Source: Chiloscyllium plagiosum (taxonomy: Eukaryota). From it: a stretch of DNA of 45,903 bases. The stretch is from assembly GCF_004010195.1 (NCBI RefSeq), contig NC_057754.1, positions 10,362,973-10,408,875 on the forward strand, read 5' to 3'. The stretch's first letter is position 1. Each line of letters begins with the position of its first letter. The notes below the pieces were generated by a model, which saw only the letters and a program-made list of their open reading frames with translations, searched no databases and was not told the DNA's origin. This document shows positions 20,997 to 25,125 of the stretch, piece by piece. The translations under genes and the position numbers were made by a program.

Positions 20997-23153
20997 GAGG
21001 ATTGGGAAAGTTTTGAAATTCATTTTCTGAAGTAGTGCAAACTCATGTGGAAGAGCAGAGAGTTAAACAGCAAGATTAGCAGCTGAAATGGCCGATGATT
21101 ATGAATTGGTCCAAAAATCAAAATTTGGCTTCCAAAATCAATTTCAATCCTTGAGGAATAGAAATTGTGGAAAAGAGAAATCCTCTTGTGGAAAGGGAAA
21201 GGTAGGTGTCAGTGAAGATCATAAGGATAACTTAGCATGGAGGGGAAAGCGAAGTTAAAAATTCCAGTGCTTTCACTGCAATAAAGTAGGCCACATAAAA
21301 TCAGTGTTGGTGGGCTAGGAAAAGCACTGGGAAGCTAGATGTAGGGATACAAGATAAGCCAGTGAATTTTGTTAGAGTGGTAACAGAAAGCACGGTGGGT
21401 GCTAAAAATCTGCCCCAGAATGTACAACCTGGTTGGATGTTGGTTAAGGAGGAAGTGCCAAATCTTCTTAAACCATATAGCTGCTAAGGTAAACTTTGCT
21501 TGCATAGGCCAGGAGCAGCAAGTAAAGAGGTTACAATGTTAAGAGATACAGGAACCTCTCAATCTGTGATGTCTAACAGTGAGGAGATATATAATCTGCA
21601 AGACTATTTCCAGAAAAGGTACTAGTGACAGGAATTGACGGTGAGACAAGAAGTGCTCAATTATGTAAAGTAAGGTTAGAGTGTCTAGTGAAGAGTGGAG
21701 AAGTCGTGGTAGGAGTACTGGACAAACTCTCAGCTCCAGCAATACAATTTGTCCTTGCTAATGATATAGCTGGTTCACAGGAAGGAATGCTGCCTACTGT
21801 GGTTGAAAAGCCAGTGGAAACTGAATTAATGCAGAACACAAATCCCGGGATTTTTCCTGACTGTGTGGTAATGAGGTCACTAAATCACCAGTTGAAACAG
21901 GAGAGATCAAGAAGTACAGATAAGAAAGTTGAAGCAGAATTAGCAGAGACCCTTTTTGATCACATGGTTGACACAAACTGGGAGCAGATGGATGATAAAG
22001 CAATTTTAGTTCAGATGAATTAACTGAGTTACAGCAGAAAGAGGAAAATTTAAAGCAATTGTATCAAAAGGCATACACAGAAAAAGAATCCAAATGTATT
22101 CCTGAGTGTTATTATCTGAAAAATAATGTCTCAATGAGCAACTGGAGACCATCATATATTCAGGCAGATGAGAAATGGTCAGAAGTTCATCAAGCCAGTT
22201 TGCCACTGGGTTGTTGGAAGGAGGTGTTGCGAGTACTACACGAGCTACCACTAGAGTTATTTAGGAATGAGAAAAACTGAAGCTAAAATGCAAAAACATT
22301 TTTTCTGGCCTGGACTGTGGGAATGTAGTTGAATTTTGCCAGACATGTCATAAATGTCAGGTAATTGGACAACCATAGGCAGTAATAAAATTTGCACCTT
22401 TAATACCTATTCCTGCATTTGAGGAACCTTTTACAAGAGTCTTAATTGATTGTATAGGAGCCCTACCTCTAACAAAAATTGGGAATCAGTATTTGTTAAC
22501 AATAATGGATGCGTCCACTAGATTTCCAGAAGCTGTTCCATTACACAATATTACAACTAAAAGGATTGTAGAGGAGTTACTCAAATTTTCACTAGTAGAT
22601 ATGGACTACCCACAGAGATACAATCAGATCAAGGATCAAACTTTACATCAAAATTATTCAAGGAAGTTATGGGCAGCATAGGAATGAAACAATTCAATTC
22701 AATTCTTCTGCTTACCATCCAGGCAGTGCTAGAAAGGTGGCATTAGACATTAAAGACCATGTAGAGGACTTATAGTCAAGACTATCTAGATAAGCGAATT
22801 CTGTTTGTGCTGTTTGTGATCAGAGATGCTCCAAATAAATCGACCAAATTCAGTCCGTTTGAATTAGTTTTTGGGCATGAAGTGAGAGGACCATTAAAAT
22901 TGATTTAGGAGAAATTGGTAACTCACAATTCAGAGATCCCAGATTTGGAATGTGTGTCAAATATTAGAGAACAATTAAATAGAGTTGGGGGAGTTGGCTA
23001 GACAGCATTTGAAAGTATCGCAGCATACAATGCAACAGACAAGAAATCAAAAACTCGGAAATTTGCTATCGGAGATAAGGTGTTATTGTTACTATCAGTG
23101 ATAGGTGAACCTTTAAAAGCAAGGTTTAGTGGACCTTATCAAGTCAAAAGGAT

Positions 23154-23371
23154 CTTCAAGGAGAAAGTGAGGACTGCGGATGCTGGAGATCAGAGCTGAA
23201 AATGTGTTGCTGGAAAAGCGCAGCAGGTCCGGCAGCATCCAAGGAACAGGAGAATCGACGTTTCGGGCATAAGCCCTTCTTCCTGAAGAAGGGCTTATGC
23301 CCGAAATGTCAATTCTCCTGTTCCTTGGATGCTGCCGGACCTGCTGCGCTTTTCCAGCAACACATTTTCAG
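23154..23371. mobile_element. Short fold-back PLE pLTR insertion (subfamily A) inside the Gmr1 element
   Basis: Near-perfect palindrome 23196-23371 centred at ~23283; TSD caagtcaaaaggat at 23140-23153 and 23372-23385. Confidence 0.9.
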
Positions 23372-25125
23372 CAAGTCAAAAGGATATTGAGTAAGGTGAA
23401 CTATTTGATAAGGACTGCAGACAGAAAGAAATCTCTCAGGGTGTGTGATGTGAATATGGTCAAAAGGTATTTTGACAGGAAGGAAAGCAAGAGGAGAATG
23501 TGTTATTGGTTACAACACAGTTTGAGGAACCAAGTTCAGAGGATTCTGAATTGGACATTCCTCAAATTACATTGGACAATGAGAAAGTTGTCAAAAGTTG
23601 GAATAAATTGTTGAGTTATCCTCCAGAGTAAAGTTGAAATGACCAGAAGAGCTTTTGCTATCACATGGGGAGATATGTGGAAATAAGCTGGGAAATACTA
23701 ATCTAATTATCCATGATGTAGATACAGGTGATGCTGATCCGACTAAGCAATATCCTTATAGACATAAACTTCTAAATTTGGCACATGTTCAAAAGGGGAT
23801 TTAATGCATGCTTCAAGATGACATAATTGAAGTGAGTTACAGCGACTGGAGCTCCCCAAAATAACGGTGCCAAAACCAGATTGCACACAACAGTTATGTG
23901 TGGGCATTCGCAAAGTCAATGCAGTTACGGAGACTGATGCATATCCAATTCTGCATTTGGAAGATTCTGTTGAAAATGTGGGACAAGCAACTTATGCTTC
24001 CAAGTTGAACTTGCTCAGAGGATACTGGTAGGTACCTTTTGTCGGAATTAGCACAGGCAATTTCGGCATTCGTAACATTCGTAACTGACTGTATCAGTTT
24101 AAAATCATGCCATGAAAAATGCGCCAGTCGCATTTCAGAGACTAACCAGTAAGGTCGTTCCTGGATTATCCAACTGTGTCGTGTATATAGATGACCTGGT
24201 GATTTTTAGTCACACATGGAAGGAACATTTGCAACATTTATCAGATTTGTTCGATTGACTTCAGGAGGCAGGCTTGGTGATAAACCTAGCTAAGAGTCAA
24301 TTTGCCAAAGCCCAACTCACCTTCCTGGGCCATATTATTGGACATGAACAAATAGTCCCACGGGATGCAAAAACAAAAGTAATTGGGGAGTTTCCCATAC
24401 CAACGACAAAAAGAGCACTTCCTGGGATTGAATGGATTTTATTGAAAATTCGTACCAAGTTTTAGCAGTGTGGCTGCTGCATTCATTGAATTGCGAAAGA
24501 AAGACGTTTCAGTAGACAGCTGACTGTCAGAAGGTATTTGACAACCTGAAAGTTGTATTAACCACTGCCTCAATTTTGCCACATCTAATTATGCAAAGCC
24601 ATTCAAGGTGGCTATTGATGCAAGTGATGTGGGTGTCAGTGCTATGCAGGAAGAGTATGCTAAGCTGGAAAGACCTATTGAGTACTTCTCCAGGAAATTG
24701 AACATTCATTCGACAGTTGAGAAGGAGACTTTGAGCTTGGTGTTGACATTACAGCGTTTCAATGTTTATGTTACCAGTAACATATTTGAGACAATCATAT
24801 ACACTGACCATAACCCATTGAAGTTTGTGGAGAAATTTAAGGACAAAAATGCCAGACTGTTTGCATGATGCTTGGTGTTATAGCCATTAATTTGAAAAAT
24901 TGTGCCTCTGGCAGGATGAGAAACCATGATTGCCGACGCATTGTTGAGACTTGAATGAGGAACAGAGGCGTTCGGTAGCTGGAATAAAACAGACTGAAAC
25001 AGAATGTATTTGTGCATGTTTGTAGTCAGTGTAATGTATGTGTGTGTTATAGAGTACTACAGTTTATGATAAAGGGGTTTCAAAATGAAGCCATTCAGTG
25101 TTCATTGTGTTTAAGGGTGGGGATG

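Follow-up and report, generated by a model that had tools for sequence, protein, structure and literature searches.

A stretch of 45,903 nucleotides (nt) of Chiloscyllium plagiosum DNA (assembly GCF_004010195.1, contig NC_057754.1, forward-strand positions 10,362,973 to 10,408,875; hereafter the window) carries three insertions of ∼200 bp in which one sequence is written twice, head to head, and turns at a hammerhead ribozyme motif. How such palindromes are made, and why they turn where they do, is the question raised by this locus. The three insertions, beginning at 12601, 23154 (the focal element) and 30670, are head-to-head pairs, flanked by target-site duplications (TSDs), of the last ∼90–130 nt of a hammerhead-bearing repeat of a Penelope-like element (PLE). 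Judged from sequence comparison, these fold-backs are probably the products of priming on both target strands from two internal start sites, and not of a strand that folded on itself at a point set by the ribozyme. This explanation is preferred because each arm holds sequence that its partner lacks.

Design and repeated formation of the fold-backs

For comparison, every copy was mapped to one natural reference copy, the solo repeat at 39612–39830 (ref 1–219). In all three window elements, one arm runs to ...ctcactttctcc / ...CTCACTTTCTCC and its partner is 35–45 nt shorter; the short arms of the 23154 and 30670 elements end on the same base (..cattttcagc). A preliminary description of this DNA had assigned the three insertions to one TSD-flanked, unequal-armed design turning at the hammerhead, and alignment of the arms and direct reading of the TSDs confirm this. 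Its placing of the turn within or just 5′ of the CUGANGA core holds for the 12601 and 23154 elements, which turn at CTGANGA or immediately 5′ of it; in the 30670 element only the short arm reaches this point, and the long arm begins at about ref 120. The motif adjoining the turn reads CTGANGA-A-GGGC-TTAT-GCCC-GAAAC-GTC. In the focal short arm it is CTGAAGA-A-GGGCTTATGCCC-GAAATGTC (23283–23310), with two CpG decays. The two arms of the focal element differ at 2 positions, both at CpG, and those of the older 12601 element are unlike at 20 of 70 positions.

The design was followed in an unbiased sample of 1,045,903 nt, which comprises the window with 200 kb of adjacent DNA and a 200-kb stretch of each of four further contigs, drawn without regard to the element, which avoids the bias of similarity searches. 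It contains 205 BLAST segments, with 45 head-to-head pairs (44 elements) and 116 other segments. Eight cryptic fold-backs, with a short second arm that had stayed hidden, were found among 88 stump-like segments tested from these 116. Fold-back density is thus 44–51 per Mb, which extrapolates to ∼1.5–1.8 × 10^5 copies in the 3.56-Gb genome.

The pairing of the arms is strict. One tail-bearing and one tail-less arm are combined in 42 of 44 pairs, as judged from coordinates and sequences, the other two being unclear; independent choice of ends would give at most half of the pairs mixed (p 6e-11). The long arm exceeds the short one by a tail of ∼37 nt (median), the excess lying at 28–45 nt in 33, and at 21–62 nt in 38, of the 42 pair rows giving a value. 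A single pair in the cryptic set, C1:20185787–20185990, is tailed on both arms; one of its arms has a 12-nt internal deletion. At the other end of the arms, most 5′ ends (64 of 88) fall at ref 85–101, an interval that begins 8 nt upstream of the CUGANGA core and extends 8 nt into it (p 1.6e-36 versus uniform). Many short arms have their last base precisely at A89 of the reference (...CAGGAAT), with which the 4-bp helix I begins. Inversion points are thus enriched at the hammerhead, as the preliminary description had surmised, and not uniform along the repeat.

Within this common frame, each arm can carry private sequence. In 17 of 44 pairs it is the short arm that extends more 5′, by a margin of 10 nt or more and of up to ∼90 nt, against five pairs in which the long arm does (sign test 17:5, p 0.017); in two pairs (C45:217658, C6:110038) the arms scarcely overlap. 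At the turn, 2–8 nt are assignable to either arm in 16 pairs, there is no gap in 2, and 1–67 nt of filler are present in 26.

Target sites were profiled in 72 fold-backs drawn from the sample and from the close relatives of the focal element (L002–L030). An exact flanking repeat of at least 8 nt is found in 59 of them, with a median and mode of 14 nt, a range of 8–17 nt and varied sequence. Both presumed nick sites have the same weak profile, with a purine at −1 (73–74%), C-rich positions +1 to +3 and A-rich positions +4/+5. This suggests two equivalent cuts made by a symmetric enzyme.

Neither end point is restricted to pairs. The outer end of the short arm behaves as a start of reverse transcription, and not as a stop of copying, because TSD-flanked solo insertions use the same site as their 3′ end (five examples). 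Likewise, TSD-flanked solo stumps start at the 5′ end point of the arms (window-contig block position 63392, C4:118090), and head-to-tail joints from ref 217 to ref 89 occur in independent DNA contigs and at C4:77438–77802.

Further observations concern what lies beyond the tail. A rarer third start site is indicated by 28 genomic copies carrying the tail plus TYGAAGATTTTT. A 30-nt pattern search for a copy continuing into the open reading frame (ORF) gave these 28 matches, and all 12 that were inspected end in a T-run followed by the TSD. In the focal long arm, 23154–23159 (cttcaa = TTGAAG) is a template-derived extension past ref 217 and corresponds to the first 6 nt of TYGAAGATTTTT. Two head-to-tail products (C4:50077438–50077802 and C1:20045898–20046305) consist of a stump, 78–110 nt of post-tail sequence and a second stump starting at A88/A89. 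In the post-tail stretch, an ATG (MPTLKKFSS...) follows the tail by ∼50 nt and may mark where the ORF of older subfamilies begins. The T-run had raised the idea of a small RNA made by RNA polymerase III (Pol III); it was dropped, as older copies continue for at least 60–110 nt beyond the tail.

That both arms copy the same source sequence is supported by several comparisons. Variants private to both arms of one element within the 1.05 Mb occur in three cases, and own arms are closer to each other than cross pairs are (1.5 versus 2.6 non-CpG differences, permutation p <0.0002). In the 30 pairs with at least 50 common aligned nt, the arms share 56–86 nt of the same stretch. The duplication of one sequence by the two arms, claimed in the preliminary description, is therefore upheld, and so is its view that junctions differ between copies through repeated formation and not through amplification of one miniature inverted-repeat transposable element (MITE). 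When the 212-nt focal element is compared with its own genome, the 40 that were scored of 1997 candidates all match it over the full length, with 91–100% identity, a recurrence that chance could not produce; each of the 29 non-self loci fetched has distinct flanks and direct repeats of its own. Within one sublineage, seven copies show at least five junction types, and one junction type is common to two sublineages. Because junctions vary among close relatives and the same type recurs across sublineages, the pairs are taken to have formed repeatedly, which supports their formation anew at each insertion. Two of these loci, L013 and L014 (C2:43517511–43519633), hold a single fold-back with the same flanks in two inversely oriented copies separated by 1.7 kb, which reflect either a local inverted duplication or an assembly artefact.

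Priming on both strands weighed against other routes

In the proposed mechanism, the element protein would nick both strands ∼14 nt apart and so create two 3′ ends. One of them would prime at a distal start site (..CUCACUUUCUCC, sometimes 6–12 nt further) and the other at a proximal start site (..CAUUUUCAGC(UCU)). Both complementary DNAs (cDNAs) would copy the same source sequence toward the 5′ end of the RNA; their 3′ ends would meet through 0–8 nt of microhomology or a short filler, and each would be completed on the other. The centre of the resulting palindrome would be the 5′ end of the RNA. This end is placed near A89 because arms, TSD-flanked solos and head-to-tail joints share it. The position of the hammerhead at the turn would thus reflect an RNA that appears to start with it, and not an action of the ribozyme there. 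Stumps are common, probably since each transcript carries start sites ∼95–130 nt from its 5′ end.

Three other routes have to be considered. Self-priming, favoured by Arkhipova 2013 (PMC3846280) in its treatment of PLE junctions, would have a single cDNA, begun at the tail site, fold at the hammerhead, copy itself and halt ∼37 nt short. It accommodates the common source and the shared rare variants of the arms as well as the 22 of 44 pairs whose arm 5′ ends lie at most 9 nt apart, and the first bases of the template (UUCCUGAA) are near-palindromic and could seed a fold-back. However, sequence missing from the first cDNA cannot appear in a copy of it, as would be required in the 17 pairs with a more 5′ short arm, and a fold-back started from the short arm cannot yield the tail. 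Nor does self-priming account for a short-arm outer end fixed at the site that TSD-flanked solos use as 3′ end, for the discordance of one T/G site between the arms of 12 of 29 copies, or for the 30670 element, itself asymmetric (its short arm reaches ref 89 and its long arm begins at ref 120). As each arm carries sequence that the other lacks, self-priming fails here and must be regarded as improbable. The preliminary description had opted for cDNA fold-back over twin priming, in essence the idea of Arkhipova 2013 (PMC3846280), a choice opposed by the tail excess in 38 of 42 rows and by the more 5′ short arms. Its further suggestion that ribozyme structure or cleavage may set the turn corresponds to a second route, in which reverse transcriptase would be halted by the cut or by the fold and the start of the second arm fixed in this way; this seems very unlikely. 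The turn is indeed tightly tied to the motif, the motif pairs are kept in 83.6% of cells versus 3–50% in slid controls (80 aligned copies), and the long arm of the 30670 element begins at about the predicted cleavage site. Yet the arms span the whole ribozyme and pile up at its 5′ edge, whereas a block would place the ends at its 3′ edge and cleavage would place them at ref 120. The predicted cleavage site ±2 (ref 118–122) holds 3 of the 22 arms cut deeper than ref 101 (p 0.10) and the start of 0 of 116 solo segments, and the end point actually used recurs in TSD-flanked solos and head-to-tail joints. In vitro, ribozyme mutants left insertion unchanged and uncleaved RNA was the main template (Frangieh 2024, PMC11167929). 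The motif here matches no Rfam hammerhead model, and the PLE minimal hammerheads described in print self-cleave poorly in vitro, and only as dimers.

The third route, an amplified hairpin master, supposes that the ∼212-bp fold-back is a non-autonomous unit, like a MITE or a short interspersed element (SINE), that is transcribed and copied whole. It would explain the 39 other full-length matches of the focal element, of 91–98% identity among the 40 scored of 1997 candidates, and the identical junctions at separate loci (L013, L019 and L027; C6:41049 and C6:92479). Against this, junctions vary inside one sublineage and recur across sublineages, and at two diagnostic sites, read by eye, both arms show the same allele (12 of 12), which would need parallel mutations. 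The short arm ends exactly, abutting the TSD, as a read-through hairpin RNA would not. The recurrent junctions (...CAGGA<ATG>CCCG, two loci) are accounted for by microhomology between the fixed cDNA end and the other cDNA. Such a master is thus hardly credible, and a MITE made by a transposase misfits the unequal arms and the variable TSDs of 8–17 bp.

Several points weigh against priming on both strands as formulated here. At the site gctgcc[T/G]gacc (window 23228 and 23319 region), the arms are discordant in 12 of 29 close focal relatives (L002–L030), the short arm mostly having T and the long arm G (8 versus 2), and other diagnostic sites are always mirrored; this misfits one RNA molecule copied twice. 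In single-cell RNA reads selected for polyA, no site at which many molecules begin is found on a full repeat, and the step in RNA read depth at A89 mirrors DNA copy number, with 91% of the reads running into unlike sequence. In vitro, start sites show no strand difference (Frangieh 2024, PMC11167929), so that the strict coupling of long and short arms is left unexplained by the model. The half of the pairs with nearly coincident arm 5′ ends is equally predicted by self-priming at the turn, post-insertion deletions at palindrome centres could mimic some of the asymmetric turns, and junction palindromes were taken as self-priming in Arkhipova 2013 (PMC3846280). Finally, the one long-plus-long pair (C1:20185787–20185990) has no TSD. 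Two further probes of the template end gave little: the putative 141-nt template RNA folds into no structure beyond that of shuffles (z +1.0), and too few clean TSD-flanked solos (17 rows) were available for seeking an additional G, as left by copying of a cap, at their 5′ ends.

Priming on both strands can be given a sharper form, which is put forward only tentatively: the PLE ribonucleoprotein would hold both 3′ ends of the ∼14-nt staggered cut and be obliged to give each strand its own, different internal start site on a single source RNA beginning with the hammerhead. If so, the ∼10^5 stump palindromes would be a natural record of coupled double priming, a step not seen in vitro so far, and this would replace the published self-priming model. 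In any case, the coupling of the start sites is a fact for which any integration model must account.

The repeat family and other insertions of the window

The repeat is assigned as the terminal repeat (pLTR) of a PLE because a remnant of a GIY-YIG endonuclease directly precedes the solo copy at 39612–39830 and similar remnants precede others. The match of the remnant ORF to PF01541 is barely above threshold (E 7.6e-05, 23.4 bits, cut-off 22.6), and Pfam gave no match on two further, shorter ORF fragments. Upstream of other full repeats, translations show like remnants (..LYIGETG..) and a YIDD motif. The PLE identity given in the preliminary description is thereby borne out.

The assignment of the hammerhead is at the level of the motif. 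Six of the seven columns of the CUGANGA core are at least 90% conserved in the 80 aligned copies, N7 being variable, and in GAAA the A's show little or no variation. Pairing amounts to 93% in helix II, where a few changes affect both sides of a pair, and to 71% in helix I, in which one pair is U.U in 68 of 77 distinct rows. The covariation score of the motif is above all but 10 of 500 shuffles. Rfam gave no match over the whole window at gathering score; with E up to 10, the region 23100–23420 gave no hammerhead model, and only sub-threshold matches to microRNA precursors and other hairpins, which are explained by the palindrome. Against the microRNA precursor families of Rfam, the palindrome 23225–23342 reaches 44.3 bits at best, for a gathering score of 92. 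Fold-backs of this type could be miscalled as microRNA genes.

In Drosophila Penelope, transcription starts inside the pLTR (Schostak 2008; Craig 2021, PMC8557442). Here, a conserved TTTATCT(C/T) is found 30–33 nt upstream of A89 in four diverged subfamilies whose intervening bases differ, with copies in the window at 39690–39770, 77–128, 27409–27500 and 42980–43030. It is possibly a TATA-like promoter element.

The coordinates of the window features are compiled in Table 1. Besides the fold-backs, the window holds six further single copies of the repeat, some of which extend far upstream of the motif.

Table 1. Fold-backs, related insertions and remnant coding sequence in the window (strand refers to the sense of the repeat or ORF).
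Feature	Position	Strand	Description
Focal fold-back, left TSD copy	23140..23153		caagtcaaaaggat; identical to 23372–23385, read directly
Focal fold-back, right TSD copy	23372..23385		14 bp; read directly
Focal fold-back, long arm	23154..23282	minus	ref ∼95–217, plus 6 further template-derived bases
Focal fold-back, short arm	23283..23371	plus	ref ∼90–182; outer end ..cattttcagc; without the ∼37-nt tail
Focal fold-back, inverted arms	23195–23282 / 23285–23372		88 nt, 98% complementary, spacer 2 nt
Older fold-back	12601..12822	minus	long arm 12601–12732 (minus, ref 86–218), 3-nt filler
Older fold-back, short arm	12736–12822	plus	ref 90 to ∼175
Older fold-back, TSD	12591–12600 and 12823–12832		ctactgagtt, 10 bp
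Older fold-back, inverted arms	12645–12709 / 12756–12820		65 nt, 74%, 46 nt between
Asymmetric-turn fold-back	30670..30857	plus	short arm 30670–30763 (minus, ref 89–182)
Asymmetric-turn fold-back, long arm	30760–30857	plus	ref 120–218; start near the predicted cleavage site
Asymmetric-turn fold-back, TSD	30657–30669 and 30858–30870		aatccatgtattt(g), 13–14 bp
Asymmetric-turn fold-back, inverted arms	30670–30731 / 30760–30821		62 nt, 95%, 28 nt between
Composite element	4424..4733	plus	two families joined; by sequence comparison
Solo full repeat, coordinate reference	39612..39830	minus	ref 1–219; reaches upstream of the hammerhead into the element body
Remnant ORF with GIY-YIG endonuclease domain	39898..40653	minus	PF01541; directly upstream of the solo repeat 39612–39830
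Solo stump, same family	36041..36174	minus	ref 85–217
Solo full repeat, diverged subfamily	27322..27542	minus	ref 1–218, 76%

The composite element had been described, at 4424–4727, as an analogue of the fold-backs in a second subfamily, B. An inverted family B fragment of 32 nt (4424–4455) and a family B long arm (4612–4733, beginning CTGATGAAGGAGC) are indeed present; the element is, however, a composite, with 146 nt of the first family's repeat (4471–4616, ref 41–188) wedged between them. The two families overlap by ctctgat, at the proximal start site of the first family, and the whole looks like a template jump from the 5′ end of one RNA to the start site of the other family. Family B, with its CTGATGAAGGAGC start, is a second abundant family and forms the same long/short head-to-head pairs elsewhere in the sample.

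Runs of N break the window at 9706–10642, 11733–12216, 42925–42934 and 44040–44391 (1783 in all), one of them 385 nt upstream of the 12601 fold-back.

Comparison with known systems

For the route of PLE integration, two proposals are in print: self-priming (2013) and, from work in vitro (2024), a reaction in which both strands are cleaved and extended and two start sites are used. The origin of the inverted repeats is not described in the available portions of these two papers (PMC3846280, PMC11167929). The short palindromes of C. plagiosum are simple enough for the reaction to be read from its products, and they argue for two primed strands and a fixed 5′ end of the template.

The design itself is already in print as the PLE insertion unit, which comprises an inverted 5′-truncated copy, a one-sided tail of 30–40 bp and a TSD (Craig 2021, Fig. 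2 legend, PMC8557442; Arkhipova 2013, PMC3846280). A case in point is Pen2a_Av of Adineta vaga, in which the tail measures 31 bp and the inverted repeat is 37 bp shorter, and for which self-priming was proposed (Arkhipova 2013, PMC3846280). Shared with the unit as published are a head-to-head, inverted and 5′-truncated adjacent copy, one arm shorter by ∼31–37 bp, a one-sided tail, a short variable TSD, a repeat with a hammerhead motif and an encoded GIY-YIG endonuclease; the endonuclease, the adjacent inverted copy, the tail and the TSD are all found here. Unlike the unit in these descriptions, both arms are cut to ∼90–130 nt, which leaves a ∼200-bp palindrome devoid of ORFs; the point of truncation is not random, being a single position 4 nt 5′ of the hammerhead core, and copies number an extrapolated ∼10^5. 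What is new is the extreme and fixed truncation, the evidence against self-priming and the strict coupling of two start sites. In the literature searched, no paper connects PLEs with twin priming, and none was found that addresses this point for sharks, Penelope elements and hammerhead ribozymes.

The nearest biochemical counterpart is PAc, the purified PLE protein of Anolis carolinensis (Poseidon), which cleaves and extends both strands and begins reverse transcription at two adjacent internal sites, the tail being the sequence between them (Frangieh 2024, PMC11167929). Cleavage and extension of both target strands, two adjacent internal start sites bracketing the tail, their location ∼60–100 nt downstream of the hammerhead cut site and the use of uncleaved RNA as template are all paralleled by the fold-backs. 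In contrast, PAc shows no strand preference for a start site in vitro, whereas the two arms almost always use different sites here, and joined two-arm products, seen here as insertions, are not described in the main text on PAc (PMC11167929).

At the level of the ribozyme, the motif has the traits of the minimal hammerheads of PLEs (Cervera and de la Pena 2014, PMC4209133), namely, the CUGANGA core, an extra base between positions 9 and 10.1, a G10.1–C11.1 pair, GAAA, a palindromic ACGU at helix III and a 4-bp helix I. It differs from those described there in the U.U pair that prevails in helix I and in lacking an Rfam match.

Twin priming in L1 elements offers a second comparison. In the account of Ostertag and Kazazian 2001, 5′ inversions of L1 reportedly arise when the second nicked strand also primes on the RNA. 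As in the fold-backs, the inverted part lies inside one TSD-flanked insertion. In L1, it is said to come from a more 5′ stretch of the RNA, so that the arms are not duplicates; here both arms copy the same stretch, and their overlap by 56–86 nt in 30 pairs led to rejection of an L1-type origin.

Finally, MITEs and fold-back DNA transposons resemble the present elements as short, ORF-less inserts with inverted repeats and TSDs, able to give hairpin RNA when transcribed; with an abundance of the order of 10^5, the fold-backs can form long hairpin RNAs when they lie inside transcripts. Unlike MITEs, they have arms that differ by ∼37 nt, exact TSDs that vary in sequence and in length (8–17 nt), arm ends that coincide with start sites of reverse transcription, no transposase-type termini and a junction that is new each time, with at least five types in the seven copies of one sublineage. 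A MITE origin was rejected on these grounds, and in annotation the fold-backs should be filed as PLE stumps, and not as MITEs or microRNA-like hairpins.

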